From the NCBI GenBank assembly GCA_035267645.1, contig DATFLN010000034.1, positions 100,505-164,504 of the forward strand: DNA of 64,000 nucleotides, read 5' to 3'. The notes beneath the pieces were generated by a model that saw nothing but the letters and a program-made list of their open reading frames with translations, was not told the DNA's origin and made no database searches. Positions 8,734 to 29,610 of the stretch are shown here, piece by piece. Positions within the stretch are counted from its first letter, which is position 1; each line of letters opens with the position of its first letter. The translations under genes were made by a program, and so were the position numbers. This DNA is from Gemmatimonadota bacterium. Lineage in GTDB: Bacteria; Gemmatimonadota; Gemmatimonadetes; Palauibacterales; Palauibacteraceae.

Positions 8734-9609
8734 TCAGCCCGCGGCCGCGGCGTCCAGGATCCGCCCCAGCCGCTCGGGCGCCCGGCGGTGCCCGAGGTTG
8801 CTGATGTAGACGTGCCGGACGCCGGCGTCCCGCAGGGCCCGGATCGAGCGGGCGCACACGGTCTCGGGCGTCGCGCCGCGCTCGAACTCCCGGGTCAGCT
8901 CTTCGGCGGGCACCGGGAAGAAGTCCGAGAGCTTCTCCAGCGTCGAGGGCGTCGCGCTCCGGTAGTAGAACACCCCGAACACGCCCGGCATCTCGAGGTC
9001 CCGCCGGCGGGCCTCCTCCACGAAGGCCTCCACCCGGCCGGCCGTGTGGTGCGAGACCACCTGGGTGAGGTAGAACTCCCCGGTGAACGCCTCGTCGATC
9101 AGGTAGCTCACCTGCTCGGCCGGGTCCCGGTGCGGATTGGCCCAGCCGCCCAGCTCGAGCCCCGGCACCCGGTCCCGGATCCTGCGGCGGAGCTGGTAGG
9201 CGTGCGGCACGCAGCGGGGCGGGCCCGCCTCGGGGTCCCCGCCCAGGACCACCAGGGCCTCGAGGCCGCGCGAGGCGGCGCGATCGGCGTAGCGGAGGCA
9301 GTAGCCCATCGAGTGCTTGCAGGTCAGGAACGGGACGAGCCGATCGCGTGGGACCTCCCCGGCCAGGTTGGTCACCAGGTGGCGGAGATTCTCCTCCTCG
9401 CGCTCGCCCACCGCGTCGTCGGTGAGGAACACGGCCGTGTCCCTCCGGCCCAGCCTGCGGAGCGCGTGATGGAGGTCGAGCCACGTCTCCATGCCCTCGT
9501 CCGAGGGGAGGTCGGCGGGAGGCGGGCGGAGCTCGACGGCGACCAGCGGCTCGGTCCGCCGAAGCCGTTCGAGGAAGGCGCTCTGTCGGGGAGACGTGGA
9601 GGTGGCCAT
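8734..9609 (-). CDS. Methylenetetrahydrofolate reductase-like (MetF family) protein
   Basis: ~290-aa ORF whose layout resembles MTHFR-family TIM barrels (LEALVVLGGD..., YLTQVVSHH, GVFGVFYY). The start is either ATG 9609 or TTG 9621. Confidence 0.7.
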   Translation of the reverse strand: MATSTSPRQSAFLERLRRTEPLVAVELRPPPADLPSDEGMETWLDLHHALRRLGRRDTAVFLTDDAVGEREEENLRHLVTNLAGEVPRDRLVPFLTCKHSMGYCLRYADRAASRGLEALVVLGGDPEAGPPRCVPHAYQLRRRIRDRVPGLELGGWANPHRDPAEQVSYLIDEAFTGEFYLTQVVSHHTAGRVEAFVEEARRRDLEMPGVFGVFYYRSATPSTLEKLSDFFPVPAEELTREFERGATPETVCARSIRALRDAGVRHVYISNLGHRRAPERLGRILDAAAAG

Positions 9610-9668
9610 CTTGGGCCGCAACTTAGTCGTCGGGGCCGTCTTCCGTCGAGGGATGCCGGGGTGAGGAC

Positions 9669-10223
9669 GTGGGCGTGAAACGCTTCTTCTATCGCTTCCG
9701 CGGGTGGCTGGTGGCGCCCCCGCTCCTCTTCGCGCTGTTCACGACCGTCGGTCGGGCGGACCGGCCGGTCCTGTCGTGGGCCCTCGGGCTCGTCCTGTTC
9801 GCCCCGGGCGTCTTCCTGCGTCTGTGGGCGCAGCAGCACCTGCACTACCGGCTCGAGACCGAGACGGCGCTCACCCGCTCGGGCCCCTACCTGTGGGCCC
9901 GGAACCCGATCTACGTGGGCAACACTCTCATCGGCACCGGTCTCGTGGCGACCTCGGGGCTCCTGTGGCTGGTCGTGCCGACGGCGGTCTGGTTCCTGGC
10001 CGTGTACGCGGTGGTCGCGCGATACGAAGAGGGCGTGCTCGAGGAGAGCTACGGGGAGCCGTACCGCGTCTTCCGGGAGGAGACGCCGCGCTGGTGGCCG
10101 AGGGCTCCTTCGGAAGGGCGGCTCGAGCTCGTGAACGAGCACCTCGGGGCCTCGATCGTGGCCGAGCTCCACAACCTCCTGTTCCTCGTCCCCTTCGTCG
10201 TGCGGGCCCTGGTGCTCCGCTGA
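9669..10223 (+). CDS. Isoprenylcysteine carboxyl methyltransferase / phospholipid methyltransferase family membrane protein
   Basis: Four to five TM segments plus the family motif GPYLWARNPIYVGNTL...YEEGVLEESYGEPYRVF. The start is GTG 9669, or GTG 9675 just after a GAGGA. Confidence 0.85.
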   Translation: MGVKRFFYRFRGWLVAPPLLFALFTTVGRADRPVLSWALGLVLFAPGVFLRLWAQQHLHYRLETETALTRSGPYLWARNPIYVGNTLIGTGLVATSGLLWLVVPTAVWFLAVYAVVARYEEGVLEESYGEPYRVFREETPRWWPRAPSEGRLELVNEHLGASIVAELHNLLFLVPFVVRALVLR

Positions 10224-15630: not shown

Positions 15631-17604
15631 GTGGGCCTGAACGTCGCACAGAAGCTGATCCAGTCGCACCTGGTGGAGGGGGAGATGACCCCCGGCCGGG
15701 AAATCGGGCTCGAGATCGACCAGACACTCACCCAGGACGCCACGGGCACGCTGGTCATGCTGGAGCTCGAGGCCATGGGCCTGGACCGGGCCCGGACCGA
15801 GCTCTCGGCTCAGTACGTGGATCACAACCTCATCCAGGAGGACAACAAGAACCCGGACGACCACCGGTTCCTGCGCAGCGCCTGCCGGAAGTTCGGGATC
15901 TGGTTCAGCCGGCCCGGGAACGGGGTGAGCCACCCCGTCCACCAGGAGCGCTTCGGCGTGCCCGGCAAGACGATGGTGGGTTCGGACAGCCACACCCCCG
16001 CCGCCGGCGCCATCGGGATGCTGGCCATCGGCTCGGGAGGGATGGACGTGGCCATGGCCATCGCCGGCGAGCCCTACTACGTGAAGATGCCCGAGATCTG
16101 GGGCGTCCGGCTCACCGGGGAGCTCCCCGACTGGGTGAGCGCCAAGGACGTGATCCTGGAGATGCTCCGGCGTCACGACGTGGACGGGGGCGTGGGCCGG
16201 ATCATCGAGTACTACGGGCCGGGGCTCGAGAGCCTTTCGGCCATGGACCGGCACGTCATCGCCAACATGGGGACGGAGCTGGGCGCGACGACCACCGTCT
16301 TCCCCTCCGACGACGAGGTCCGGCGCTTCCTGGCCTCCCAGGGACGCGAGGACGACTGGATCGAGATCGTGGCCGACGAGGACGCCGGGTACGACGTCGA
16401 CGAGCACATCGACCTCTCGGAGCTGGTCCCGCTCATCGCGAAGCCCTCGAGCCCGGGGAACGTGGTGCCGGTCTCGGAGCTGGCGGGCGAGGAGATCTCC
16501 CAGGCCTACGTCGGCTCCTCGGCCAACCCCGGCTACCGCGACTTCGCCGTTGCGGCCGAGATCGTGAAGGGACGGCAGGTGCACCCGGACGTCTCCCTCG
16601 ACGTGAACCCGACCTCGCGGCAGATCCTCGAGAACCTGGACCGCGACGGGCATCTCCTCTCCCTCATCCACGCCGGCGCCCGCATCCACCAGGCCGGCTG
16701 CAACGGCTGCATCGGGATGGGCCAGGCCCCGGCCACCGACACGCGGAGCCTGCGGACGGTCCCGCGGAACTTCCCCGACCGTTCGGGGACGAAGGACGAC
16801 ATGGTCTTCCTGGTGAGTCCCGAGACGGCCGCCGCCTCGGCGCTCATGGGCGTCATCACCGACCCGCGGAGCCTGGAGGAGGAGCTCGGGCTCTCGTATC
16901 CGGACGTCTCGGATCCCGCCGAGCCGATCCTGAACACGAAGGCGCTCGAGGCGCCGCCCTCCGCCGAGGAGGCCCGCGAGCTGTCGCTCGTGAAGGGTCC
17001 CAACATCGTCTCCCTCCCCGAGCTGGAGGGGTTGCCGGACGCGCTCGAGGTGCCGGTGAGCTTCAAGGCGGCCGACGACATCTCCACCGACGAGATCCTG
17101 CGGGCGGGCGCCGAGGTCCTCCCGTACCGGAGCAACATCCCCGAGATCTCGAAGTTCGCGTTCGACGTGGTCGATCCCGACTACTACGACAAGGCCATGG
17201 ACACCCGGGACTCGGGCGGGCACGCGGTGGTCGGCGGCTCGAACTACGGCCAGGGCTCGAGCCGGGAGCACGCGGCGCTGGCGCCGCGCTACCTGGGCCT
17301 CCGGCTCGTGGTCGCGAAGGACTACGCGCGCATCCACTGGCAGAACCTGGTCAACTTCGGGGTGCTGCCGCTCACCTTCCAGGACCCGGACGACTACGAC
17401 CGGATCGAGCAGGGCGACGTCCTGCGGGTCGAGGGCCTGGACGAGACCCTGGGCCGCGGCCCGGAGGTGGAGGTGACGAACGTCACGAAGGGCGAGACCT
17501 GCGCGGCCCGGCACGACCTCTCGGAGCGTCAGATCGAGATCCTGCGCCAGGGCGGCCAGATCGAGTGGATGAAGCGGCGGCTGGCCGGCACCGCCGCGGC
17601 CTGA
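15631..17604 (+). CDS. Aconitase-family hydratase (~657 aa short type, putative aconitate hydratase)
   Basis: Blocks IDQTLTQDATG, MVGSDSHTPAAGA and CNGCIGMG (Fe-S ligand region), plus swivel-domain GSSREHAALAPRYLG. GTG start at 15631. Confidence 0.9.
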   Translation: MGLNVAQKLIQSHLVEGEMTPGREIGLEIDQTLTQDATGTLVMLELEAMGLDRARTELSAQYVDHNLIQEDNKNPDDHRFLRSACRKFGIWFSRPGNGVSHPVHQERFGVPGKTMVGSDSHTPAAGAIGMLAIGSGGMDVAMAIAGEPYYVKMPEIWGVRLTGELPDWVSAKDVILEMLRRHDVDGGVGRIIEYYGPGLESLSAMDRHVIANMGTELGATTTVFPSDDEVRRFLASQGREDDWIEIVADEDAGYDVDEHIDLSELVPLIAKPSSPGNVVPVSELAGEEISQAYVGSSANPGYRDFAVAAEIVKGRQVHPDVSLDVNPTSRQILENLDRDGHLLSLIHAGARIHQAGCNGCIGMGQAPATDTRSLRTVPRNFPDRSGTKDDMVFLVSPETAAASALMGVITDPRSLEEELGLSYPDVSDPAEPILNTKALEAPPSAEEARELSLVKGPNIVSLPELEGLPDALEVPVSFKAADDISTDEILRAGAEVLPYRSNIPEISKFAFDVVDPDYYDKAMDTRDSGGHAVVGGSNYGQGSSREHAALAPRYLGLRLVVAKDYARIHWQNLVNFGVLPLTFQDPDDYDRIEQGDVLRVEGLDETLGRGPEVEVTNVTKGETCAARHDLSERQIEILRQGGQIEWMKRRLAGTAAA

Positions 17605-17620
17605 GGGAAGGGAGACGACG

Positions 17621-18103
17621 GTGGAGCTGTACGTGGCCCGGCACGCCCGGGCGGCCGGCGAGAGCCGGGGCGGCGAGAGGCCGCTCACCGACGAGGGACG
17701 CGAGGACGCCCGCCGGGTCGGGCGCGCCCTGGAGGCGGCCGGTGTGAAGCTGTCCTCGGTGTGGCATTCCCCCAAGCTCCGGGCCCGGGAGACGGCCGAC
17801 CTCCTGGCGGGGGCGGTCGGTGCCGGGGCCGAGCTCGAGGAGCGCGTCGACCTGCAACCGCTCTCGGACCCCACCACGGTCCTGGACGCGGTGCGGGACG
17901 CGGTCGGCCCGGTCCTCGTGGTCGGCCACCTGCCCCACGTCGAGCGCCTCGGCTCGCTCCTCCTCACCGGGAGCGCCGACGCGGAGGTCGTGGACATCCC
18001 GCCCGGCGGGGTGCTGCGCTTCGTGAGCGGCGAGGGGCGGGACTGGCGGCTCACGTGGTTCGTGACGCCCGGGCTCCTCCCTCGCGAGGCGGGGAAAGCC
18101 TAG
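17621..18103 (+). CDS. sixA: Phosphohistidine phosphatase SixA
   Basis: 160 aa. It has the histidine-phosphatase RHA motif at the N-terminus (LYVARHARA), plus SPKLRARETA and VVGHLPH. It begins 16 nt after the aconitase-family gene. Confidence 0.85.
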   Translation: MELYVARHARAAGESRGGERPLTDEGREDARRVGRALEAAGVKLSSVWHSPKLRARETADLLAGAVGAGAELEERVDLQPLSDPTTVLDAVRDAVGPVLVVGHLPHVERLGSLLLTGSADAEVVDIPPGGVLRFVSGEGRDWRLTWFVTPGLLPREAGKA

Positions 18104-18160
18104 CGAGCCGGCCTCCGGGGTCCCCGGCCCCGGCGCCGCCCTCCTCCTCCGAAGCCGGGG

Positions 18161-18209
18161 ACCGCCGCGTTCCCGGGACCGCCGCGTTCCCGCACTGCCG
18201 CGTTCCCGT
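18161..18209. repeat. Tandem direct repeat, 16-17 nt x 3 (ACCGCCGCGTTCCCGnn)
   Basis: The copies are ACCGCCGCGTTCCCGGG, ACCGCCGCGTTCCCGC and ACTGCCGCGTTCCCGT, with a degenerate fourth (ACCGCCGGCGGG). They lie 146-194 nt upstream of ATG 18355. Confidence 0.9.
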
Positions 18210-18354
18210 ACCGCCGGCGGGCTTTCCCCGCCGTGCGGTCCGCCTTATCCTGCCCGGTCTCACGGCGCCGGCCCGTCCGGCGCTCCCGGTCCGCGGCGCC
18301 GGCCGCCCGGCCGGGCCACGAACCGACGAGAGCGACTCCGACCCGGAGCGGCCC

Positions 18355-21300
18355 ATGCGGATCCCCACCCTCCTCGCATCCTCGATCGTCCTGGCGGCGT
18401 CCGTGCCCCCGGCCCCCGCGGCCGCGCGCCCGGCTCCGGCGCCCGCCGTCCCGGCCGCTGCGGCGTCGGCCCCGGATGGCCCGGCGCCGGCCGCCCTCCA
18501 GGACACGACCGGGAAGGCCGGGAAGATGGCCGCGAAGGAGGAGGAGAAGGAGCCCCTGCCGCTCTCGACGCCCGACACGCTCCGGGTCGCCTCGTCGGAG
18601 GGCTCGTGGCTCTCGATCGACGTGAGCCCCGATGGCCGGCAGCTGGTCTTCGACTACCTGGGCGACCTCTATCTCCTCCCGTTCGACGGCGGTCGAGCGC
18701 GCCCCCTCACCACGGGGCAGGCGTTCGACGGGCAGCCGCGCTTCGGCCCCGACGGGAAGCGCGTGGCGTTCGTCTCGGACCGGAGCGGCTCGGAGAACGT
18801 GTGGATCGTCTCGGTGGACGGGAGGGACACCGTCCAGGTCACGAAGACGAAGCACGACCTCTTCCAGTCGCCCGAGTGGACACCGGACGGCCAGTACCTG
18901 GTCGCCTCGAAGCAGACGGGCTTCGGCCCGGCCAAGCCCTGGCTCTTCCACGTGGACGGAGGGACCGGGATCCAGCTCGTCGAGGACGAGAACGGCGGGA
19001 ACGGCGGGCGCTCCGAGGGGAAGCGGCTCACGGGCGCGGCCTTCGGGCCCGACCCGCGCTACATCTGGTTCGCGCAGCGGCAGGGGACCTGGGAGTACAA
19101 CGCCATCTTCCCGCAGTACGAGCTGGTGGAGTACGACCGGAAGACGGGGGAGACGTTCACGCGCTCGGCCCGCTACGGCTCGGGCATGCGCCCCACCCTC
19201 TCGCCCGACGGCCGCTGGCTGGTCTACGCCACGCGCCACGACGCGCAGACCGGCCTCCGCATCCGCGACCTCTCGAACGGCCGGGAGCGCTGGCTTGCCT
19301 ACCCGGTCCAGCGCGACGACCAGGAGTCGGTGGCCAGCCGGGACGTCTACCCCGGCATGTCGTTCACGCCCGACTCGAAGGAGCTGGTGGCCACCTACGG
19401 CGGGAAGATCTGGCGGATCCCGGTGGACGGGAGCGAGCCGAGCGAGATCCCGTTCACGGTGGACGCGGCGGTCCCGATGGGACCGCGGCTCGACTTCGAG
19501 TACCCGATCCCCGACTCGGCGGAGTTCACGGTCCGGCAGATCCGGGACGCCGTGCCCTCGCCCGATGGGAAGCGGCTGGCGTTCACGGCCCTCGACCGGC
19601 TGTACGTCATGGACTGGCCGGACGGGGAGCCGCGCCGGCTCACCTCCTCGGAGGACCTCATCGAGGCCGAGCCCACGTGGTCGCCCGACGGCCGCTGGAT
19701 CGCCTATGCCACCTGGTCGGACCAGGCGGGCGGCCACCTGTACCGGGCGCGCTCGGATGGGAGCGGCAGCCCCCGCCGGCTCACGACCGAGTCGGCCGTC
19801 TACCAGGAGCCCGCGTGGTCGCCGGACGGGGAGCGGATCGTCGCGGTGAGCGGTCCGGCCCGGACGTACTTCGAGCACCAGGGCCCGTTCGAGCCCGGGG
19901 CCCGCGAGGACCTGGTGTGGATCCCGGCGTCGGGCGGCGCCGCCCGGACGATCGTGCCGGCCGAGGGCCGCGGGAACCCGCACTTCAGCCGCTCGGAGCC
20001 GGACCGGATCTTCCTGTACTCCACCGGCGACGGGCTCGTCTCGATTCGCTGGGACGGGACCGACCAGAGGAGCTACCTGAAGGTCGCGGGAGGGAAGCCG
20101 CCCGGCTCGCGCCGCCCGCTGCAGGCCGGGCTCCTCCTCATGGGGCCGGACGGCACGAAGGCGCTGGCCCTGGTGAACCACCAGGTCTACGTGGTCACCG
20201 TCCCGTTCGTGGGCGGGAAGACCCCCGAGGTCTCGGTGGCGAGCCCGGAGACCGCCGCCGTGCCGGTCAGGAAGCTCACCGACGTGGGCGGCCAGTTCGT
20301 CGCGTGGGGCCCGGACGGCCGCACCGTCCACTGGTCGATCGGGAACGCCCACTTCGCCTACGACCTCGTGGCGGCGAAGGCCGCCGAGGACAGCGTGGAG
20401 GCGGCTAAGAAGGCCGAGGCGCGGGCGAAGGCCGCGGCCGGGCCCGACACCGCGGAGGCGGCCGACGAGGCCGTGGAGATGGCCGCCGACACGACCGGGG
20501 AGGCCGACGGGAGCGCCGGCGCGGAGGCCGGGAAGGAGGAGCCCGCCTACGAGCCCACGGAGCGGGCCGTGGTCGTCCGCGCCCGGCGCGACATCCCGCG
20601 GGGGGCGGTCGTCCTCCGGGGCGCCCGGGTGGTCACCATGGACGGCGACCGGGTCGTCGAGGACGCCGACCTGGTGGTCGAGGGCGCCCGCATCCGCGCC
20701 GTGGGAGCGAGGGGCGAGGTCCCGGTGCCGCGCGGGGCCGAGGTCATCGACGTGTCGGGGAAGACGATCATCCCCGGCTTCGTGGACACGCACGCCCACC
20801 CGTGGCCGGTGTGGGGGCTCCACAAGACGCAGATCCCCAAGTACATGGCCAACCTGGCGTACGGGGTCACGACGACCCGCGACCCGCAGACGTCGACCAC
20901 CGACGTCCTCACCTACGCCGACCGGGTCGAGGCGGGCCGCATGCTGGGACCGCGCATCTTCTCGACCGGGCCGGGGGTGTTCAGCTCGGAGATGATCTCG
21001 AGCCTGGACGAGGCCCGGGACGTCCTGGAGCGGTACAGCCGGTACTACCACACCCGCTACATCAAGATGTACATGACCGGGAACCGGCAGCAGCGGCAGT
21101 GGGTCATCATGGCGGCCCGCGAGCAGGAGCTGCTGCCGACCACCGAGGGCGGGCTCGACCTCAAGCTGGACATGACCCACGCGCTGGACGGGTATCCGGG
21201 CCACGAGCACGCGCTCCCGATCTTCCCGCTGTACGAGGACGTCATCCGGCTCATGGCGGACACGAAGAGCGCCTACACGCCCACGCTCATCGTCGCGTAC

Positions 21301-21885
21301 GGCGGGCCCTTCGGGGAGAACTACTGGTACACGCGCCACAACCCGCACGACGACGCCAGGCTCCGCCGGTTCACGCCCCACCAGGAGCTGGACTCGAAGA
21401 CGCGCCGGCGGGGCCCCGGCCCGGGCCCGGGGCCGGGCGGGTGGTTCCTGGAGGACGAGCACGTCTTCCCGGAGATCGCCACCTACGCGCGGAAGATCAT
21501 GGAGGCGGGCGGTCGGCTGGGCGTGGGGAGCCACGGGCAGCTCGAGGGCCTGGGCTACGACTGGGAGCTGTGGATGCTCGCCTCGGGCGGCATGACGCCC
21601 ATGCAGGCCCTCCGGGTGGCCACGATCATGGGGGCGGACGACCTGGGGCTGGACGGCGACCTGGGCTCGATCGAGCCGGGGAAGCTGGCGGACCTCCAGG
21701 TCCTGGACCGGAACCCGCTGGAGGACCTGCAGAACGTGAGCTCGCTCCGCTACGTCATGAAGAACGGCCGGCTGTACGAGGCGGCGACGCTGAACGAGGT
21801 GTGGCCCCGCCAGCGCGAGCCGACGGGCATGTACTGGCTGGGCCAGGACCCGGAGGGGGTGGCGGCGGGGGTGAACGAGAAGTAG
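18355..21885 (+). CDS. Secreted TolB-like beta-propeller protein fused to a C-terminal amidohydrolase domain
   Basis: In-frame ATG at 18355 (MRIPTLLASSIVLAASVPPAPA). There are many SPDG/WSPDG propeller repeats. The C-terminus carries metal-dependent amidohydrolase blocks IIPGFVDTHAHPW and GSIEPGKLADLQVLDRNPL. The upstream part of track ORF 17761..21885 is a shadow frame. Confidence 0.9.
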   Translation: MRIPTLLASSIVLAASVPPAPAAARPAPAPAVPAAAASAPDGPAPAALQDTTGKAGKMAAKEEEKEPLPLSTPDTLRVASSEGSWLSIDVSPDGRQLVFDYLGDLYLLPFDGGRARPLTTGQAFDGQPRFGPDGKRVAFVSDRSGSENVWIVSVDGRDTVQVTKTKHDLFQSPEWTPDGQYLVASKQTGFGPAKPWLFHVDGGTGIQLVEDENGGNGGRSEGKRLTGAAFGPDPRYIWFAQRQGTWEYNAIFPQYELVEYDRKTGETFTRSARYGSGMRPTLSPDGRWLVYATRHDAQTGLRIRDLSNGRERWLAYPVQRDDQESVASRDVYPGMSFTPDSKELVATYGGKIWRIPVDGSEPSEIPFTVDAAVPMGPRLDFEYPIPDSAEFTVRQIRDAVPSPDGKRLAFTALDRLYVMDWPDGEPRRLTSSEDLIEAEPTWSPDGRWIAYATWSDQAGGHLYRARSDGSGSPRRLTTESAVYQEPAWSPDGERIVAVSGPARTYFEHQGPFEPGAREDLVWIPASGGAARTIVPAEGRGNPHFSRSEPDRIFLYSTGDGLVSIRWDGTDQRSYLKVAGGKPPGSRRPLQAGLLLMGPDGTKALALVNHQVYVVTVPFVGGKTPEVSVASPETAAVPVRKLTDVGGQFVAWGPDGRTVHWSIGNAHFAYDLVAAKAAEDSVEAAKKAEARAKAAAGPDTAEAADEAVEMAADTTGEADGSAGAEAGKEEPAYEPTERAVVVRARRDIPRGAVVLRGARVVTMDGDRVVEDADLVVEGARIRAVGARGEVPVPRGAEVIDVSGKTIIPGFVDTHAHPWPVWGLHKTQIPKYMANLAYGVTTTRDPQTSTTDVLTYADRVEAGRMLGPRIFSTGPGVFSSEMISSLDEARDVLERYSRYYHTRYIKMYMTGNRQQRQWVIMAAREQELLPTTEGGLDLKLDMTHALDGYPGHEHALPIFPLYEDVIRLMADTKSAYTPTLIVAYGGPFGENYWYTRHNPHDDARLRRFTPHQELDSKTRRRGPGPGPGPGGWFLEDEHVFPEIATYARKIMEAGGRLGVGSHGQLEGLGYDWELWMLASGGMTPMQALRVATIMGADDLGLDGDLGSIEPGKLADLQVLDRNPLEDLQNVSSLRYVMKNGRLYEAATLNEVWPRQREPTGMYWLGQDPEGVAAGVNEK

Positions 21886-21891
21886 TAGGGA

Positions 21892-22185
21892 GAGCGGCCT
21901 CTCACCGAAGAGGGGCGCGAGGACGCCCGCCGGGTCGGACCGGCCCTCGCGGCGGCCGGCCTGGAGCTGGCCCACGTCTGCCACTCCGGGAAGCTCCGGG
22001 CCCGGGAGACGGCCTACCTGCTCGCGGGCCGTCGGGGCTGACGCCGAGCTCGAGGACCGGACCGAGCTCCAGCCGCTCTCCGACCCGGTCGGGATCCTGG
22101 ATGCGGGCCGTGACGCGGATGGCCACTTGCTTCACGTCGAGCGCCTCTCCTCCCTTCTCCTCACGGGCGAGGTCGACCGGAGGAT
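21892..22185 (+). pseudogene. Decayed second copy of sixA (5'-truncated, frameshifted, internally deleted)
   Basis: My alignment against 17672-17990 shows colinear similarity. ERPLTEEGREDARRVGPALAAAGLELAHVCHSGKLRARETAYLLAG matches ERPLTDEGREDARRVGRALEAAGVKLSSVWHSPKLRARETADLLAG. A premature TGA follows, and after a +1 shift ADAELEDRTELQPLSDP...GHLLHVERLSSLLLTG matches AGAELEERVDLQPLSDP...GHLPHVERLGSLLLTG. The first ~17 codons, including the catalytic RH motif, are missing. Similarity ends where GC content drops. Confidence 0.75.
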
Positions 22186-22476
22186 TTGGCCTTCTCCTCT
22201 CCGCTCACGCGCTGTCGGCTCCCTTCAGCTCTCAGCTCGTCTTGCTTGGAAGTTTCCTTTTTCAGCACAGCTCACCGGCCCTGTCGATAACGGGAAGATT
22301 GATGTAACAATGGCCGTGTTGTGAGACGCGAGATCGGAAATTGCGGGCCAAGGTCTACCTGGGCTCGACCGGGCGAAATTCACCTCGTTACGTTGATATT
22401 CCTCGGCTATCTCCATGTGTGCCACGGAGTGGAGCAACTGCCCGAGGGGTGCTGTATTCGGCTTCTGGGAAGTCCA

Positions 22477-22974
22477 ATGAATCTTTCCGTTAGGGCTCAT
22501 ATTCTTGTAGCCCTTCCAGTCAGTTTGACCTGCGTTCTGGCAGGATGCAGGTCATCCGACGTTCGGAGGTCCGGTGTCGACGCCGAACGGCTCGGTAACA
22601 TCATATTCTCACGTGCATCGTACCAACCGGGCGTCGAATTCGGTGGCGAAACTGCTGCGGTCGTACTCGATCCATCCGCGGCTTTGAGCTGCAATACGTC
22701 ATTGCCTGAGTGGTTCACGTGGCAATCACAGGCTGAGCGGCGGCTTGTTCTCGTCCTGACGCGTGAGCCCACCGCAAACGAGAGGCGCGAACTAAAGATG
22801 TTGCGTTTGCATGTCGCTGGGGTAGTGCCCGCAGGCGCGACCGTAGCGGCCCGGCCACGGGTTTATCTGTTCAGCGCTCGCTCATTGATCGATTCTGTCG
22901 ATCTCGCGGAGGGCCCGACCAGTACACTCAAGCTCGGCGGCTCCGTGATTGCGGACCGTGGTCCCCAGTCGTAA
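22477..22974 (+). CDS. Hypothetical lipoprotein (165 aa) in the low-GC islet
   Basis: An internal ATG of track ORF 22321..22974 gives MNLSVRAHILVALPVSLTCVLAGC, which is a signal peptide plus an LAGC lipobox. I recognised no family. Confidence 0.6.
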   Translation: MNLSVRAHILVALPVSLTCVLAGCRSSDVRRSGVDAERLGNIIFSRASYQPGVEFGGETAAVVLDPSAALSCNTSLPEWFTWQSQAERRLVLVLTREPTANERRELKMLRLHVAGVVPAGATVAARPRVYLFSARSLIDSVDLAEGPTSTLKLGGSVIADRGPQS

Positions 22975-23106
22975 ACCCTGCCGAGCGCCCTGGTCGGATG
23001 TGGCAGGGTCCGGAAGGCGCCCCAAGTTGAGCAGCACGGCCGGAAGGCGCGGGAGAATTCGTCACTGCTAGGTCCATTACCGATAACCCTTGGACTAGAG
23101 GAGCAG

Positions 23107-23319
23107 GTGTCAGGAAATCGCGGAAAGGCACTCGCAAGGGTTCTCCTGGCAGCCGTCGCTATGGCCGTCGTGTCTTGGTTCACGATATTGCGCCCCAAGC
23201 CGACCGAGGCAGTCCCTGTATGCTACGACTGCTATACTCTGATCCATCCCGTAGAAGGCTCCGACTCTTGTCCCCACGGCGATAGGTGCCCGTGCACATG
23301 CTGCCCCAATGGCGGATAG
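23107..23319 (+). CDS. Small Cys-rich membrane-anchored peptide (70 aa)
   Basis: A GAGGAG sits 3 nt before GTG 23107. There is one hydrophobic segment (ALARVLLAAVAMAVVSWFTIL), then 8 Cys and 2 His in the last 32 residues (CYDCYTLIHPVEGSDSCPHGDRCPCTCCPNGG). The stop lies 3 nt before the next gene. Confidence 0.5.
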   Translation: MSGNRGKALARVLLAAVAMAVVSWFTILRPKPTEAVPVCYDCYTLIHPVEGSDSCPHGDRCPCTCCPNGG

Positions 23320-23322
23320 CCC

Positions 23323-24527
23323 TTGGTGGAGGTCGGGGGGACGCCGCGATCTTACCTGCGAAGCGCTCTCATTCTTTCGGCGTCTGCGGCGGCCTTCGTG
23401 GGTGCATGCGAGTCGTCACAGGGCGTGCCTCGAGGCCCCTCCGACAGCCCGCTCCTGGTCGCCGCGGAGAGTCTACGTCTGCGGGAGTCCGACTCGCTCT
23501 ACATCGGTCGGATCGGTGGGCTGTACACGAGCCGCTCGGGCGATCTGTATGTATCCGATCTCTTCTTGGATCGCGTGCTCGAATTCGACGCGGCGGGCAG
23601 GATCGTGCGCGTCTTCGGCCAGAAAGGCCACGGGCCCGGTGAGTCCGCGGATGTAGGGTCTATCGTCGCCGCCAACGATTCCGCCGTGGCGGTGGCCGAC
23701 TGGGGTTCCGGGACTCTCAACATCTATGCGAGTCGGGGCGGTCGCTATCTGGGCTCGGCGTATGCCCGGGGCCGAGCGACATCGGCGTTCTTCGAGGGTG
23801 ACTCGCTGGTGGTCGGCAGCATCCGGTCCACCGAGGGGGCTCGCATCGACCTCTACAGACTCACCTACGCCCCGGTCACGGGTGAGGCCGAGTGGAAGCG
23901 TGGGTTCGAGTTGGGTCTACCTCCAGCGTATAGCAGCAACTCGACGGTAAGCGGTCTGTACGGCCTTGTCAGCGTGCTGCCATGGCGAGACGGGTACGTC
24001 GTCGCCTTTGCCGCCGACTCCTTGATCAGGGTGTGTCGAGACAGGGGAAGCTGCTCGAGTCGTTCGCCGTTCCGGCCCGTGTGCGACGCGGCGTCCCCGC
24101 CGATCTCGCTGATCGCGCTTCCCTGGAAACACGGTCGCTCGGCGAGCTGTTCGAGATGACTTCCGTGCTGGTCGCACTGGGCCGCGGGACGGACGGCAGC
24201 CTCGTGGCTGTGTACTTCGATGAGACGCTCACATCGAAGTCTGCCCGGACGGCGCGTGCGGATGTTTTCGTGTCCGTCGTGTCCGCCAACCTGAAGAAGG
24301 CTTGCGTAGATCTGCGGATCCCGGTCGATACCGTCTCGCTGCCCGAGGTTCATGTGGCTGGAGACACCGTGCTCGTCGTGCAGCAGACACTCCCGTCCCG
24401 AGCGTCCGGTCGAGCTGCCGGAGAGCCCGAGACCGATGTGTGGAAATATGCGATTGATACGAGTGGGTGCCGCTGGCTCCCGCTCCGGCGCTCTGCTCCG
24501 ACGCGCGCTGCCGTAAACTCACGCTAG
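23323..24527 (+). pseudogene. NHL-like / six-bladed beta-propeller lipoprotein gene interrupted by a frameshift at a (GT)3 tract
   Basis: Frame 1 (23323 to ~24033) has a signal peptide, a lipobox-like FVGAC and an NHL-type repeat SGDLYVSDLFLDRVLEFDAAGRIVRVFGQKGHGPGE. The protein-like sequence then continues in another frame from ~24036 to 24527 (SRQGKLLESFAVPARVRRG...SLVAVYFDE...DTVLVVQQ...DVWKYAID). The two frames join cleanly if 2 nt of gtgtgt (24031-24036) are skipped. Confidence 0.6.
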
Positions 24528-24534
24528 GTGTCGA

Positions 24535-25002
24535 GTGCTGGATCCAAGGAGGGCCTTCGCAGCCATCTGCTGCATTCTCCTGTCGTCGGGCTGCAGGGGT
24601 GATGCGCCCCGGCAACCGCCGTCCCGGACCGACGCCGCGGCCGACGCCGCGGGCCGCTCCGGACGTATGCGGACGATCCGATATGCGGTGGCCGCCAGAC
24701 CGGAGCTGCTCCGGGCCATGGGTGCGAGCGCCAGGCCCCTGCTCATCGTGGATGGCCGGCGAATGGGGCGGCTGAACTACAGGACGTGCGAGCCGGCGTC
24801 AGATACGACTGCGGCGAGCGCCCCTGCGCACGCGAGCCTGTCATTCATCAGGGCCTTCGCGGCCGTTTCAATCTTCGGGGATGAGGGTTCGGATGGTGCG
24901 CTCGTGGTCCACCTGGGGCCGGACCGAGAGCGATCCCGGCCGGCTCGGGGTCGGCCGGATCTCACCCCACCACCCGCAGCAGCACCACGCTGGCCACGGT
25001 GA
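24535..25002 (+). CDS. Hypothetical small secreted protein or lipoprotein
   Basis: GTG start gives MLDPRRAFAAICCILLSSGC, a signal peptide with a lipobox-like end. It contains PLLIVDGRRMG and a SIFGDEGSDGALVVHL-type block reminiscent of plug/TonB-C-like small domains. Its 3' end overlaps the convergent mgtE gene by 41 nt, so the exact end is uncertain. Confidence 0.45.
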   Translation: MLDPRRAFAAICCILLSSGCRGDAPRQPPSRTDAAADAAGRSGRMRTIRYAVAARPELLRAMGASARPLLIVDGRRMGRLNYRTCEPASDTTAASAPAHASLSFIRAFAAVSIFGDEGSDGALVVHLGPDRERSRPARGRPDLTPPPAAAPRWPR

Positions 25003-26299
25003 AGTAGATCACCAGCCCCGTCACGTCCACGAGCGTGGCCACGAACGGGGCCGACGCGCTGGCCGGGTCGAAGCCCAGCTTCCGGAGGAGGAAGGGGAGC
25101 ATCGACCCGATCAGCGTCCCCCAGGTCACCACGCCCACGAGCGTGCTCCCGACGGTCAGGGCCACGAGGGGGTAGTGCGGACCGTAGTCGTACAGCCCCG
25201 CATACTGCCACGACAGGATTCGCACGATCCCGATCGCGCCCAGGATGGAGCCGAGCGTGAGGCCGGATCGGAGCTCCCTCCACGCCACCCGCCACCAGTC
25301 CCGGAGCCGGATCTCGCCCAGGGCCAGCGCCCGGATGACCAGCGTGGTGGCCTGCGAGCCCGAGTTCCCGCCGCTCGAGATGATGAGCGGCACGAACAGC
25401 GCCAGGACCACGGCCTGCGCGATCTCGCCCTCGAAGTGGCCCATGGCGCTGGCGGTGAGCATCTCGCCCAGGAAGAGGACCGAGAGCCAGCCGGCGCGCT
25501 TCTTCACCAGCAGCCCGAAGGGCGTCTCCATGTAGGGGGTGTCGAACGTCCCGGAGCCGCCGATGCGCTGGATGTCCTCGGTCTGCTCCTCCCGGATCAC
25601 GTCGGCGATGTCGTCGAAGGTGACGATGCCCACGAGCCGACGGTCCCCGTCCACCACTGGAAGGGCCAGGAGATCGTGCTCGCGGTAGAGGCGCGCCACT
25701 TCCTCTTGGTCCATCGTCTCCGGGACGGCCACCACGTCCCGCTGCATGATGTCCTCCACCCGCCGGCCCGAGGGCGCCTCGAACAGGTCGCGGAAGGAGA
25801 GCACGCCCAGGAGCCGCTGCTCCCGGTCCAGGACGAAGACGTAGTAGATGGTCTCGAGCAGGGGGGCCTGGCGTCGGAGGTACGCGAACGCTTCTCCCAC
25901 CGTCATGTCGGGACGCACCCGGGCGAAGCGCGGGCTCATGAGCCCGCCCGCCACGTCCTCCGCGTAGGCCAGGAGCGCGGTCACCTCCCGCCGCGTGGTC
26001 TCGTCCAGGAGGTCCAGGAGCCACGCCGCGTCCTCCTCGTCCGCCTGCTGCACGAGGTCGGCGGCGTCGTCGGGCGGCAGGAGGCGCATCCACACCTTGC
26101 GCTCTTCCCGCGGCAGCCCGACCACCAGCTCGGCCTGCTCCCGGGGGTCGAGCGAGAGGAAGAAGTCGTCCGCCACTCCGGGCGCCAGGGCCCGGAACGC
26201 CGCCACGCGCCCCTCCGGGTCGAGGACGGGCCAGCGCTCCCAGAGCTCGACGGCCTCGCCCCTGTCCGTCTCGGGGGTGGGCATGTGGGTGGCGACCAT
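24962..26299 (-). CDS. mgtE: Magnesium transporter MgtE
   Basis: N-domain, tandem CBS region (VFVLDREQRLLGVLSFRDL; LPVVDGDRRLVGIVTFDDI) and TM domain with LFVPLIISSGGNSGSQ. In-frame ATG at 26299 (MVATHMP). The upstream part of the track ORF is not protein-like. Confidence 0.92.
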   Translation of the reverse strand: MVATHMPTPETDRGEAVELWERWPVLDPEGRVAAFRALAPGVADDFFLSLDPREQAELVVGLPREERKVWMRLLPPDDAADLVQQADEEDAAWLLDLLDETTRREVTALLAYAEDVAGGLMSPRFARVRPDMTVGEAFAYLRRQAPLLETIYYVFVLDREQRLLGVLSFRDLFEAPSGRRVEDIMQRDVVAVPETMDQEEVARLYREHDLLALPVVDGDRRLVGIVTFDDIADVIREEQTEDIQRIGGSGTFDTPYMETPFGLLVKKRAGWLSVLFLGEMLTASAMGHFEGEIAQAVVLALFVPLIISSGGNSGSQATTLVIRALALGEIRLRDWWRVAWRELRSGLTLGSILGAIGIVRILSWQYAGLYDYGPHYPLVALTVGSTLVGVVTWGTLIGSMLPFLLRKLGFDPASASAPFVATLVDVTGLVIYFTVASVVLLRVVG

Positions 26300-26618
26300 C
26301 GCTCGTCTCCTCGTTCGTCGCTCGGATGCGGGAGGCGCCGCCCCGACGCGCGGCGTCCGTCGGCGGCGCGCGGCCAGGCGCTCCCGGCGCACCTCGGGGG
26401 CCCGCGGCGCGGCGCGCCGGCCGCGGCTCCGCGGCCGCTCCCACGGAAGATCTGGGGCTCGGGCCGGCCGGGAAAGGTGACGACCCGCCGTCGGGGGACG
26501 TCTTCCGTACGCAGGGCAGGGGGGCCGGGACGCAGCGCCGATCCGGGCCCGGTGATGGAACGGAACGTGCCCCACATGTGGGCCGGAGAGACGCGCCTCA
26601 TAGACGAGCTCGAGGACG

Positions 26619-26879
26619 ATGTACACGCTGATTCAGCCAGAAGACGACGGTCCGGTGACCTTCCGGACGCACGTGCCGCTCTCGGGACTCTCGCCCACGG
26701 ACGCTCGGCGGATCCTGGCGTCCCTGGAACCGCTCCTGGCCAAGCTCCGGGAGCGGGCGTCGTCGGAGAGGCCGGAGGAGGCCTCCGTGGTGGACCTGCC
26801 GGCGCCGCCGGCCGGGCGCCCGCGGGAGGGCGGCTCCGGAGATGCGGGTGCGGCGGGGGCCCGGGTCCGGGCCGGATGA
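26619..26879 (+). CDS. Small hypothetical protein (86 aa)
   Basis: ATG preceded by GAGGA and mostly G/C third positions (MYTLIQPEDDGPVTFRTHVPLSGLSPTDARRILASLEPLLAKLRER...). I recognised no family. Confidence 0.4.
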   Translation: MYTLIQPEDDGPVTFRTHVPLSGLSPTDARRILASLEPLLAKLRERASSERPEEASVVDLPAPPAGRPREGGSGDAGAAGARVRAG

Positions 26880-26897
26880 CCGGCCCGGACCCGGGCG

Positions 26898-28592
26898 TCA
26901 GTCCTCCCGCCCTCCGGCCACCTGCAGCGACCTGAGCCGGCTGGCCGCGGCCGCCAGCTCCTGCGGCCGGGGCATGGCCAGCTCGGGGGCATCCTCCACC
27001 GTGTGGAGGCCCTCGCGCAGCGCCGTCTCCACCGCCTCCCGCGCCAGCTCGGCCAGCGTCCGCTCGCCGTCGGCGCGCTCCCGCATGCCGTGGAGCATCC
27101 CCGCGATGGCGCGCGCCTGGCCGTAGTCCTCCAGCTGCTCGACCCCCGACAGGTCGAGGTCGGTCGCGCCGAGCTGGATCGTGTCCGTCCCCCGCGTGCG
27201 GATCTTCACCTTCCCGCCCCGCCGGGCGTCGAAGCTCCCGGGAAGGGGCCGGCGGTCCGAGGCCCGCAGCGGGTGCTCGGGCTCGCCGGTCCGCCGGCCC
27301 GTCGGGTGGGCGTCCGCCACCCTCCGCGCCTCCTGGCCCGCGTCCCGCGGCCGGTAGTCCTCCATGAGGATCACCGTGTCGGCCACGTCCAGGTAGTCGC
27401 CGCCCCCGCCGGTCACCAGGACCGTGCTCACCCCCGCCTCCAGGAGCTCCCGCACCCGGTCGATGAGGGGCGTGATCGTCTCCTGGCGCACCAGCTCCTG
27501 CATGCGCGCGTCCCGGACCATGAGGTTCGTGGCGCAGGTGTCCTCGTCCATGAGGAGGAGCGAGGTGCCGATCTCGAGCGCCTCCAGGATGGCGGCCGCC
27601 AGGCTCGTGCTCCCCGAAGCGTCGGTCGTCGTGAACCGGGCGGTGTCCCGGCCCAGCGGGAGGTCGTGGATGAAGGGCCGGAGGTCGAGCCCCGTCACCG
27701 CGCGTCCGTCCTCGCTGCGCACCTTGACCGCGTCCGGGCGGGTGACCACCCATTCCCGGCCGTCCCCCGGGACGTGCGCGAAGACGCCGTGCTGGAGAGC
27801 CTCGAGCACCGTGGTCTTGCCGTGGTAGCCGCCGCCCGTGATCACGGTCACCCCCTCGGGGATCCCCATCCCCTCGACCTCCCCGTGGTGGAGGGTGGGC
27901 AGCGAGACGCGGAGCCCGCCGGGCGCCTCGAACGGCACGGCGCCGTCCAGGGGCTCCTCGCTCACCCCGCTCCGGCGGGGGAGGAGGCTCCCGTCCCGGA
28001 TGAAGCCGACCAGGCCGCGCCCGGCCAGGACCTCCTGGAGGTGGGCGTGGTCCTCGCTCGTCTCGATCCACTCCCGCGCCAGGTCCCGGTCCAGGTGCTC
28101 CCAGCGGACCGCGTGGGCCGCGAGCGGCAGGTCCCGCGTGAGGAGGTCGGCGGCCGAGTGCCCGAAGCAGGTGCGTCCGCCGGCGGGGAGGCCCACGCGG
28201 AAGCGGAGGGTGAGGCCCTCGGGGCCGATCGTGCACCCCGAGCGCTCGACCACGATCGGGCCGTCGACGCTCACCCGCACCCGGCCGGACTTCCCCGAGC
28301 CCGGGACCGGCGGGAGCTTCCTGCACGCCTCGCGGAAGGCCCGCAGCACGAAGTCGCGCAGGCCCCGCTCGCGGGCCGGGGCGCTCCAGGCGTCGTCCGG
28401 GATGCCGTGCGTCCCGGGCGGGAGGTGGAAGCGGACCCGGCTCGGCGTGGCGTACGGATCCCCCTGCACGTGGTCGATGTGGAGCGTGAGGCCGTCGCCC
28501 TCCCAGGCCCCCCTCGACCGCTTGTAGGCGCCGTAGCCCGCCCCGTCGATCCCGTGGAGGAGCTCCGCCAGGTCCTCGAGGGTGCCCTGCAC
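26898..28592 (-). CDS. ABC-class ATPase domain protein (predicted ATPase of the ABC class, PF09818-like)
   Basis: 564 aa. N-terminus YGAYKRSRGAW...HIDHVQGDPYATPSRVR, Walker A-like ITGGGYHGKTTVLEAL, and SLLLMDEDTCATN (Walker B-like). Confidence 0.8.
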   Translation of the reverse strand: MQGTLEDLAELLHGIDGAGYGAYKRSRGAWEGDGLTLHIDHVQGDPYATPSRVRFHLPPGTHGIPDDAWSAPARERGLRDFVLRAFREACRKLPPVPGSGKSGRVRVSVDGPIVVERSGCTIGPEGLTLRFRVGLPAGGRTCFGHSAADLLTRDLPLAAHAVRWEHLDRDLAREWIETSEDHAHLQEVLAGRGLVGFIRDGSLLPRRSGVSEEPLDGAVPFEAPGGLRVSLPTLHHGEVEGMGIPEGVTVITGGGYHGKTTVLEALQHGVFAHVPGDGREWVVTRPDAVKVRSEDGRAVTGLDLRPFIHDLPLGRDTARFTTTDASGSTSLAAAILEALEIGTSLLLMDEDTCATNLMVRDARMQELVRQETITPLIDRVRELLEAGVSTVLVTGGGGDYLDVADTVILMEDYRPRDAGQEARRVADAHPTGRRTGEPEHPLRASDRRPLPGSFDARRGGKVKIRTRGTDTIQLGATDLDLSGVEQLEDYGQARAIAGMLHGMRERADGERTLAELAREAVETALREGLHTVEDAPELAMPRPQELAAAASRLRSLQVAGGRED

Positions 28593-28605
28593 GACGGCTC
28601 CCGGG

Positions 28606-29610
28606 CTACGCCAGCCGGACGCCGGTCTCCCGGAGCGCCTCCACGATGCGCTTCCCGTGGTGGCGTCCGTTCTCGATGAAGATCCGGTTGGCGTCGTTCC
28701 CGGCGGTGAGGACGCCGGCCACGTACACGCCGGGGACGGGGGTCTCCAGCGTGTCGGGGTCGTGCTCGGGCACCCCGGTCTCGGGGTCGATCGGGACGCC
28801 CAGGTCCCGCAGGAGGCCCGGGCGGGCGTGCCAGCCCGTCATCGCGAACACCCAGTCGTTGTCGATCTCCTCCGCCTCGCCCGAGTCCACGTCCCGGAGG
28901 ACCACCGTGCCGGGCGTGATGCGCTCCACCCGCGTCGCCCAGCGCACCGGGATCTGCCCCTTCGCGAACCGGTTGCGGATGTCCGGGAGCACCCAGGGCT
29001 TCACCCCGGGGTCGAGCTCCCGGGCGAAGTGGACGAAGGTGACCCGCGCGCCGGCGCGCCACAGCTCGAGCGCGGCCTCGACCGCCGAGTTCCCGCCCCC
29101 CACCGTGATCACGTCCTGGCGCCAGTAGGGGTGGGGCTCGTCGTACCGGTGCGTCACCTTGGGGAGGTCCTCGCCCGGGGCCCCGATCGGGTTCGGGGCG
29201 TCGAAGCTCCCCGTGGCGACGACCACCGCCCGGGCGCGCGTCTCCCGCTCGCGGCCGGCGCGGTCCCGGCTCGCGAGCCGGAAGTCCCCCTCCTCGCCCT
29301 CCACCGAGACGACCTCCTCGAACTGGCGCACGTCCAGCTCGAAGTACTCCGCCGCGCGCCGATAGTAGGCCAGCGCCTCCTCCCGGGTGGGCTTGCCGCG
29401 CTCGATCGGGAAGGGGAGCCCCCCGATCTCGAGGCGGTCGGCGGTGCTGAAGAAGGTCATGTAGGGTCCGTACTCCCGGACGATCGTGGCCGTGAGCGGC
29501 CCGCGCTCGAACAGGGTGCAGCGGAGGCCCGCCCCGCGCGCGGCCGCACCCACGGCCAGCCCGCACGGGCCCGCTCCCACCACCGCCAGGTCCAGCATAT
29601 CGTCGCTCAT
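28606..29610 (-). CDS. ypdA: YpdA-family FAD/NAD(P)-binding disulfide reductase (putative bacillithiol disulfide reductase)
   Basis: Colinear with Bacillus YpdA as I recall it: VVGAGPCGLA, MTFFS, LPKVTHRYDEPHPY, VGGGNSAVEAALEL, KPWVLPD, NDWVFAMTGW, AGVLTAGNDANRIFIENGRHHG. The ATG at 29610 overlaps the upstream gene's stop (ATGA). Confidence 0.88.
   Translation of the reverse strand: MSDDMLDLAVVGAGPCGLAVGAAARGAGLRCTLFERGPLTATIVREYGPYMTFFSTADRLEIGGLPFPIERGKPTREEALAYYRRAAEYFELDVRQFEEVVSVEGEEGDFRLASRDRAGRERETRARAVVVATGSFDAPNPIGAPGEDLPKVTHRYDEPHPYWRQDVITVGGGNSAVEAALELWRAGARVTFVHFARELDPGVKPWVLPDIRNRFAKGQIPVRWATRVERITPGTVVLRDVDSGEAEEIDNDWVFAMTGWHARPGLLRDLGVPIDPETGVPEHDPDTLETPVPGVYVAGVLTAGNDANRIFIENGRHHGKRIVEALRETGVRLA

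Follow-up and report, generated by a model that had tools for sequence, protein, structure and literature searches.

A four-gene envelope cassette with a predicted thioredoxin-fold lipoprotein and an NHL-like propeller at the variable sixA-mgtE site of a Gemmatimonadota genome

TlpA, a membrane-tethered oxidoreductase of the thioredoxin fold, keeps the metal-binding thiols of ScoI and CoxB reduced. In the sublancin bacteriocin locus, sunA is accompanied by the dedicated thiol-disulfide oxidoreductases bdbA and bdbB. A further arrangement is found in NHLRC2 of animals and SOQ1 of the plant thylakoid lumen, where a thioredoxin-like domain is fused to a six-bladed NHL propeller (PMC6107167). In these proteins the thioredoxin active site, which carries a CC(I/V)NC motif, faces the propeller across a conserved cleft; neither protein has a known substrate, and no conserved bacterial operon partners were found for NHLRC2 (PMC6107167). 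Here, we describe a small operon in a 64-kb stretch of Gemmatimonadota DNA (the window), which corresponds to positions 100505-164504 of contig C34 of a 2.6-Mb, 88-contig and ~70%-complete metagenome-assembled genome (MAG), referred to as G000. Between a remnant of sixA and the conserved gene mgtE lies a cassette of four co-oriented and closely packed genes whose products are all predicted to be exported to the cell envelope: a lipoprotein with a predicted thioredoxin fold (gene 1), a Cys-rich mini-protein (gene 2), a propeller lipoprotein broken by a frameshift (gene 3) and a small protein of 155 aa (gene 4). The same four-gene operon is conserved, as a unit, in other bacteria, and neither Pfam nor NCBIfam nor the literature searched contains a description of it. 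The islet is probably one copy of a patchy, horizontally exchanged envelope operon at a recombination hot spot that is flanked by sixA and mgtE.

An earlier note on this DNA had singled out positions 22190-24530 as a low-GC islet that suggested horizontally acquired DNA, and comparison of G+C content, third-position G+C (GC3) and tetranucleotide usage shows that the segment departs from the genome in all three. Its G+C content is 0.623, compared to 0.735 in both the genome and the window (z = -4.55, 0.14th percentile of 12,036 same-size windows genome-wide). In the composition profile, the G+C content falls from 0.70-0.80 in the flanks to 0.53-0.68 across ~22100-24500. The drop to roughly 50-60% that was described earlier applies, in 300-nt windows, to 22100-22850 only (0.53-0.60), the remaining islet lying at 0.60-0.68. 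GC3 amounts to 0.61 in gene 1, 0.65 in gene 2, 0.77 and 0.73 in the two halves of the propeller gene and 0.75-0.78 in gene 4, whereas the flanking amidohydrolase gene and mgtE have values of 0.98 and 0.95, and 873 long open reading frames (ORFs) of the genome have a mean of 0.926 with a first percentile of 0.78. The tetranucleotide distance of 22184-24961 from the genome is likewise high (z = +5.9), with only 0.26% of windows being as deviant, and the windows of equal or greater deviation are mostly other propeller cassettes of the same genome. These values support the view that the DNA is compositionally foreign.

The true unit spans ~22184-24961, up to the stop codon of mgtE, and thus extends beyond the end at 24530 given previously, as gene 4 (155 aa) belongs to the cassette as its conserved last member. 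On the left, the boundary coincides with the end of similarity of the sixA remnant (22183), as had been proposed, and is followed by a low-GC (0.53-0.59) non-coding leader (22184-22476, + strand) that forms the left compositional boundary and is presumed to hold the cassette promoter. A sigma-70-like site was not found in this leader, and promoter and terminator scans were uninformative. The absence of visible mobility functions was also upheld: there is no tRNA in the 64-kb window, no integrase, transposase or recombinase in the ORF list of the cassette, and no inverted or direct terminal repeat was recovered at the cassette locus by a search of its boundaries. In addition, Rfam gave no match within 17000-30000 and the PADLOC defence models no protein match at E <= 0.01. 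An ENA contig of 82.9 kb and a Logan contig contain the cassette together with its junctions, at 4-5 single-nucleotide polymorphisms (SNPs) from the window. Chimerism of the MAG is ruled out, because the sequence and identical junctions recur in these two further assemblies with SNPs.

Gene 1 (22477-22974, + strand) encodes a 165-aa lipoprotein with the lipobox LAGC. Its family comprises 132 homologues at E <= 1e-3 among 1.84 billion representative proteins, which are lipoproteins of ~150-180 aa with the consensus VLVxDPxDCxxC..W..W...LVLTRxP..E.R.L. None of the 47 members in the family alignment (A1) matches a Pfam family, NCBIfam gives no match to gene 1, and a sequence-profile search of the PDB with gene 1 was not significant (E >= 0.15). 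An AlphaFold2 (AF2) model based on the family alignment (pLDDT 83.4) was compared with the PDB using Foldseek, and all 50 top matches are thioredoxin-fold thiol-disulfide oxidoreductases, including TlpA, ResA, CcmG, DsbE, StoA, SdbA and Etrx1 (probability 0.57-1.00, >=0.82 for 49 of the 50; best E = 8e-4). By this modelling, gene 1 is a predicted TlpA/ResA-like thioredoxin-fold protein. Most family members carry a CxxC motif and a conserved Pro at the cis-Pro position, while the active-site position of gene 1 reads A69-L-S-C72 (AxxC). In the alignment C72 is invariant, with CxxC in 33 and XxxC in 14 of the 47 members. The AxxC variant is common to the G000 copy and its two closest relatives, namely the homologue in the congener G003 and that in the metagenome locus L050, and gene 1 of all three therefore lacks the usual nucleophile. 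Two giant proteins, P0007 (2505 aa) and P0095 (2689 aa), match gene-1 residues ~60-96 (DCxxC...W) in 10 and 13 stretches, respectively, a likeness that is probably at the level of the motif only. A similar short C..C..W match to gene 1 is given by BIR domains in the PDB.

Gene 2 (23107-23319, + strand) is preceded by a GAGGAG Shine-Dalgarno sequence and encodes a 70-aa precursor with a basic N-terminus, one hydrophobic segment (signal or anchor) and a Cys-rich tail. The mature part of ~35 aa contains 7 Cys, not eight, together with 2 His, in the pattern CYDCY...C.HG.RCPCTCCP. This pattern is kept in a 69-aa gene at the same cassette position in L050 that is 50% identical. The residue corresponding to Gly52 is a Cys in the L050 homologue, which has 8 Cys, so that an odd number of thiols is left in the window. 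A 63-aa relative in a second metagenome locus, L055, has a classical AxA signal-peptidase site, its signal peptide ending in VQA before a Q. Because of this classical signal peptide, gene 2 is more likely to encode a mini-protein of ~35 residues secreted by the Sec route than a peptide that stays in the membrane. No homologue of gene 2 was found in the word-indexed protein search and no Pfam family matches it; its relatives were obtained only via the neighbourhoods of gene-1 homologues.

Gene 3 (23323-24527, + strand; ORFs 23323-24159 and 23982-24527) is a pseudogene of a predicted DUF5128/NHL-type six-bladed propeller lipoprotein with the lipobox FVGAC, in agreement with its first description as a frameshifted NHL-like propeller. 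The frame break amounts to 2 nt and lies in a gtgtgt tract, (GT)3, at 24031-24036. When read through, the product aligns end to end with the intact 380-390-aa proteins of L050 (38% identity) and P0002 (33% in alignment A2, 31% by BLASTP). It scores 19.3 bits against Pfam DUF5128 (PF17170), compared to a cut-off of 22.9, which is passed by two paralogues on contig C62 (36.0 and 37.4 bits). The propeller fold was tested on the intact L050 orthologue instead of the broken G000 copy. Its AF2 model (pLDDT 84.4, pTM 0.86) has as top PDB matches the NHL domains of Thin, TRIM71 and Brat and the exported Bacteroides protein 4raa, which ranks second, with E-values from 2e-10. All three assemblies (window, ENA and Logan) carry the (GT)3 tract out of frame, the ENA and Logan contigs differing from the window by 4-5 SNPs. 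As the allele is identical in three assemblies that differ by SNPs, the frameshift is a real, population-level mutation. With gene 1 assigned to the thioredoxin fold by AF2 and Foldseek, and gene 3 to the NHL/DUF5128 propellers through the six-bladed NHL fold predicted for its orthologue, the earlier statement that none of the products has an assignable function no longer holds.

Gene 4 (24535-25002, + strand) encodes a 155-aa exported protein, possibly a lipoprotein (LSSGC), with the motif RPLLIVDG...IFGDEGSDGALVV. The last ~40 nt of the gene overlap the 3' end of the convergent mgtE. Gene 4 and its counterpart at the fourth position of the L050 cassette share 33% identity, and a hidden Markov model (HMM) also matches the fourth gene of the L055 cassette (E 5e-12). 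In G000, the HMM of these three sequences gives weak matches to two SusC-like TonB-dependent receptors (E 5e-4 and 1e-3), at the point where their plug region begins and on the first conserved strands of the plug. This putative plug likeness is a weak lead only. Gene 4 has no Pfam match, including none to Pfam Plug at E <= 10, and no match in the word-indexed search, its homologues being derived only from the neighbourhoods of gene-1 relatives.

The conservation of the operon is apparent from loci in other organisms. The unrelated metagenome contigs L049/L050 and L055 contain all four genes in the same order (thioredoxin-like, peptide, propeller and fourth gene). A Longimicrobiaceae MAG (L051) and the contigs L056/L057, which have a G+C content of ~0.60, contain the peptide gene, the thioredoxin-like gene and the propeller gene, and L054 contains the latter two. 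A Cys-rich small ORF is thus found in three of the four loci L051, L054 and L056/L057. The propeller gene adjoins the thioredoxin-like gene in all six informative loci (L050, L051, L054, L055, L056 and L057) as well as in the window, and the propeller HMM recognizes the adjoining gene in the six loci with E-values from 4e-40 to 1e-192. No recombinase is present in the copies of L050, L055, L051 and L054 within the sequence examined. The L051 and L055 cassettes are close to the composition of their hosts (GC3 0.83-0.91). Some close homologues of the propeller stand alone (L042, L071 and L072), and those in L042 and L071 are AT-shifted compared to their flanks. The alignments A1 and A5 are too diverse for pattern-based locus searches.

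Within G000, HMM searches identified nine propeller genes, all of which have a GC3 of 0.67-0.83, and propeller cassettes account for five of the eight lowest-GC segments of the genome. In these cassettes the propellers are accompanied by a DsbA-like or redoxin-like protein, by secreted proteins rich in Cys, or by another gene-1-family member, the second in the genome. Low GC3 is hence a trait of the whole propeller family in G000 and not of the sixA-mgtE locus alone. On contig C17, a DsbA-like protein and a propeller are encoded in the low-GC segment 31467-33471, and a gene-1-family lipoprotein and a propeller in the low-GC segment 39778-41294. In a further low-GC segment, C34:191722-194713, a propeller gene lies with genes for a lipoprotein of 441 aa and a Cys-rich secreted protein of 133 aa. 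Two low-GC propeller cassettes occur in tandem at C62:7464-12946 (locus L040 2465-7947), of which the first encodes a 412-aa propeller and a 161-aa Cys-rich secreted protein, and the second a 371-aa propeller, a redoxin-like protein of 224 aa and a protein of 243 aa. Each of the two is preceded by a repeat, H, that consists of the last ~210 nt of a methyltransferase gene and ~130 nt downstream. These copies of H are 342 nt long and 95% identical, and a third copy measures 126 nt, which gives the arrangement H-cassette-H-cassette-H. This array (H-X1-H-X2-H) is the pattern that would be expected from repeated single-crossover integrations. Contig C27 contains a ~3-kb low-GC segment (24989-28534) with a perfect 51-nt direct repeat (25343-25393 and 28484-28534) and a related 77-nt copy around it. 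It adjoins a gene whose product is terminase-like as judged by eye only, and could represent a small integrated element close to the end of the contig.

The left flank of the cassette holds two copies of sixA. The intact gene (17621-18133, + strand) has a His_Phos_1 translation, its G003 orthologue being assigned to PF00300, and forms the upstream direct-repeat partner of the remnant. The two copies are separated by a gene of native composition for a PD40-propeller/amidohydrolase (18352-21885, + strand), as assigned by Pfam. The remnant is a pseudogene (21889-22183, + strand), as seen by blastn, translations and alignment, that begins at sixA codon ~17, 3-7 nt behind the stop codon of the amidohydrolase gene. 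It is 73.8% identical to positions 17672-17987 of the intact sixA by blastn, lacks the first ~17 codons including the RH motif, and is disrupted by one frameshift as well as by a deletion, in frame, that covers the VGH region. Its 3' truncation, at codon ~121, falls exactly at the drop in G+C, the similarity stopping at 22183. The G+C content of the remnant is ~75-79%, like that of the host genome, and its sequence is nearest to the sixA of G000 itself (75.9%), compared to 63% for G001 and 56% for G002. On the right, the cassette is bounded by the convergent and conserved mgtE (24962-26350, - strand; Pfam MgtE_N, CBS and MgtE), whose orthologues in the three congeners G001-G003, which belong to the same genus as G000, show 84-85% amino-acid identity.

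In the four genomes of the genus, the sixA-mgtE site exists in four states. In G002 it is empty, with sixA and mgtE converging and overlapping. G001 has sixA, the amidohydrolase gene and mgtE, and the stop codons of the latter two are ~57 nt apart. In G003 (locus L043, 100% identical to L038), sixA is followed by a 343-nt spacer, a gene-1 homologue, insertion sequence (IS) genes of the rve type and mgtE, while G000 contains sixA, the amidohydrolase gene, the sixA remnant, the four-gene cassette and mgtE. The gene-1 homologue of G003 encodes 175 aa at 47% identity, has a G+C content of 0.62 and lies directly downstream of the intact sixA, so that the remnant and gene 1 of G000 are colinear with sixA and the gene-1 homologue of G003. 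Global alignment of the G000 and G003 spacers revealed no significant similarity. Among the three congeners, an orthologue of the amidohydrolase is present only in G001 and not in G003. G001 and G003 are ~90% identical sisters, yet they are wholly different at this site. More broadly, the gene-1 family occurs in 10 of 114 genomes and in 2 of the 20 genera of the taxonomic family, and no orthologue of the propeller was found in 30 relatives. Absence of the genes from relatives, which the earlier note expected of acquired DNA, is thus seen in G001 and G002; G003 has a divergent stump of gene 1 together with IS.

Three further observations concern this region of the genomes. The IS genes of G003 (L043 6477-9189) number three or four (rve, rve_3, HTH_Tnp_1 and HTH_21) and overlap the 3' end of the gene-1 homologue, where the GTDB assembly of G003 breaks. 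The sixA orthologue of G001 (L037, G001:C1 ~9290-9795) is in two frames owing to a 1-nt insertion near codon 66, and may be a pseudogene or reflect a sequencing error. Another variable spot lies 2 kb from the islet, within 26760-28609, where a gene for a 564-aa protein of the PF09818 ABC_ATPase family (26898-28592, - strand) with native composition (GC3 0.98) is absent from the syntenic site of the three congeners.

As G003 contains a low-GC gene-1 homologue at the same position, the site appears to be an older hot spot. The locus in G000 would then be a composite of a G001-like amidohydrolase module and a G003-like sixA-cassette module, and the two would have been joined at a single illegitimate junction located 3-7 nt past the stop of the amidohydrolase gene. 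Such a junction would have left a 5'-truncated second copy of sixA that has since decayed. The remnant had been regarded as the trace of an older gene hit by the islet, and is better explained as a by-product of this joining. Two routes can be envisaged. A circle with sixA from codon ~17 to its end and the amidohydrolase gene could have entered the sixA of a sixA-cassette-mgtE ancestor by a single crossover, a route for which the C62 H-X1-H-X2-H array provides precedent in G000. Alternatively, a fragment with the truncated sixA and the cassette could have been imported by homology-facilitated illegitimate recombination, being anchored in mgtE and joined illegitimately on the left. In either case, the cassette, having no mobility genes of its own, would be moved by host recombination, and the site would repeatedly capture or exchange alleles from a lower-GC flexible gene pool. 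Hosts or elements with a G+C content of ~0.60 do carry the cassette, as in L056/L057. A tandem duplication of sixA and the amidohydrolase gene was considered as the simplest route, but predicts a second amidohydrolase copy, which is absent.

Several points weigh against this account. The two recombination routes give the same product and are not distinguishable, and no donor, circle or transfer vehicle was observed. The remnant is nearest to the sixA of its own genome, which would fit an old internal duplication as well. Gain and repeated loss are not rigorously polarised with four genomes in the genus, and the 47% identity of gene 1 between G000 and G003, together with the unalignable spacers, leaves both shared ancestry and independent capture at the site as explanations. 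The most serious rival is vertical inheritance. On this view the ancestor of the genus already had the cassette between sixA and mgtE, G001 and G002 lost it, IS eroded it in G003, and its low G+C is due to selection or low expression and not to foreign origin. The low-GC gene-1 homologue directly downstream of the G003 sixA, the low GC3 of the whole propeller family in G000 and the near-host composition of the L051 and L055 cassettes (GC3 0.83-0.91) are all in line with vertical descent. Nevertheless, the G000 and G003 copies of gene 1 share only 47% identity, compared to 84% for MgtE, the spacers of the two genomes do not align, and the gene-1 family is restricted to 2 of 20 genera. Moreover, the adjacent sixA pseudogene, at ~75-79% G+C, points to a GC-rich local neutral equilibrium, and since this neutral neighbour has retained such a composition, a long-resident cassette should have ameliorated. 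We therefore regard vertical inheritance as unlikely.

An origin from a classical integrative element whose mobility genes were later deleted is less probable still. It would fit the several IS (rve) genes at exactly the sixA-mgtE site of G003 and the gene-3'-end direct repeats that bound the C62 cassettes, as after site-specific integration, but the locus itself lacks integrase, transposase, tRNA and inverted or direct repeats, and the L050, L055, L051 and L054 copies are free of recombinases within the sequence examined. The frameshift in gene 3 raises a different alternative, according to which the (GT)3 tract is a phase-variation switch and the cassette a functional surface-protein locus that is reversibly silenced. 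The break does lie in a dinucleotide tract and envelope proteins are typical targets of phase variation; all three assemblies share the out-of-frame allele, however, and three dinucleotide units are, by what is generally known of contingency loci, too few for frequent slippage, which makes a switch very improbable. Horizontal exchange of the operon at a hot spot thus remains the probable explanation. The proposal of horizontal acquisition is borne out as far as the foreign composition and the absence from G001 and G002 are concerned, whereas the site is a hot spot and not the place of a unique recent insertion. For the earlier note as a whole, the observation is confirmed with the boundary moved to 24961, and the interpretation is only partly supported, the copy being in decay.

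The module in G000 is probably inactive and being lost in the lineage, judging from its sequence, because the propeller is broken, the nucleophilic Cys is absent and one of the eight Cys of the peptide has been lost. For intact copies, we infer that the propeller and the thioredoxin-like lipoprotein would cooperate, either in the periplasm or on the outer side of the inner membrane. The most economical reading, although purely inferential, is that the Cys-rich mini-protein whose gene lies between theirs, which would be disulfide-rich or metal-binding, is bound or processed by the two. By analogy, its role could lie in disulfide handling, or in maintaining metal-binding thiols in the reduced state, the task of TlpA towards ScoI and CoxB. 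Two results weigh against this reading. The AxxC variant cannot act as a classical oxidoreductase. Furthermore, 62 more distant metagenome propeller loci contain no member of the gene-1 family, and an adjacent Cys-rich small ORF was found by a crude filter in only 2 of them. The idea that the pairing is general to all NHL-like propellers is rejected by these loci, and the thioredoxin-propeller pairing is specific to this subfamily.

The islet itself is ordinary biology, namely a small compositionally foreign operon in a hot spot. One intergenic site is found in four different states in as many species of the genus, and a partial sixA duplicate preserves the junction. Together with the tandem cassettes on C62, these states provide a concrete picture of recombinase-free cassette shuffling by host recombination in Gemmatimonadota. 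A more speculative and rather doubtful proposal is that the cassette is a natural 'split' version of the thioredoxin-like and NHL device of NHLRC2 and SOQ1 that is encoded with its client. If so, the propeller lipoprotein would dock the Cys-rich mini-protein, and formation or resolution of a mixed disulfide with it would fall to the thioredoxin-fold lipoprotein, in the AxxC subclade via the single invariant Cys of the latter. The plug-like gene 4 product would then pass the product to, or gate, a TonB-dependent transporter of the outer membrane. The cassettes would in that case be exchangeable and diversifying peptide-handling modules of Gemmatimonadota, and a tractable bacterial model for a thioredoxin-NHL pairing that occurs fused in a human disease gene (NHLRC2) and in a protein of plant photoprotection (SOQ1). 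The intact cassettes in relatives are genetically testable.

The locus can be compared with several known systems. It resembles flexible genomic islets in its divergent content at one site in sister species, its atypical composition, its lack of mobility genes and its conserved flanks as recombination anchors. It differs in that the unit is very small (2.8 kb, one operon) and in that a partial duplicate of the left-flank gene records the joining event. Sublancin-type loci likewise combine a small exported peptide rich in Cys with a thioredoxin-fold protein dedicated to it, whereas the cassette has no ABC exporter/peptidase, immunity gene or modification enzyme, and its peptide is predicted to be of the Sec type. 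The DUF5128 (PF17170) propeller lipoproteins of Bacteroidota, such as BF0058 (PDB 4raa), are also exported or lipid-anchored six-bladed propellers; the G000 copy is below the Pfam cut-off, a pseudogene and from a different phylum. Neither DUF5128 nor NVEALA is mentioned in the literature searched. With the TlpA/ResA/CcmG/DsbE oxidoreductases, gene 1 shares the predicted fold and the membrane tether on the outer face, but it has no Pfam thioredoxin match, carries AxxC instead of CxxC and is unlinked to genes for the maturation of cytochrome c or Cu centres. The nearest parallel is the module of NHLRC2 and SOQ1, in which a thioredoxin-fold unit is likewise tied to a six-bladed NHL-type propeller in an extracytoplasmic or lumenal setting. 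However, the two units are predicted here to be separate lipoproteins from adjacent genes and not one chain, and they have no sequence homology to Pfam thioredoxin or NHL families at curated thresholds. The CC(I/V)NC motif is replaced by DCxxC in the gene-1 family and by AxxC in the G000 copy, and the operon adds a Cys-rich secreted peptide and a fourth small protein to the pair.

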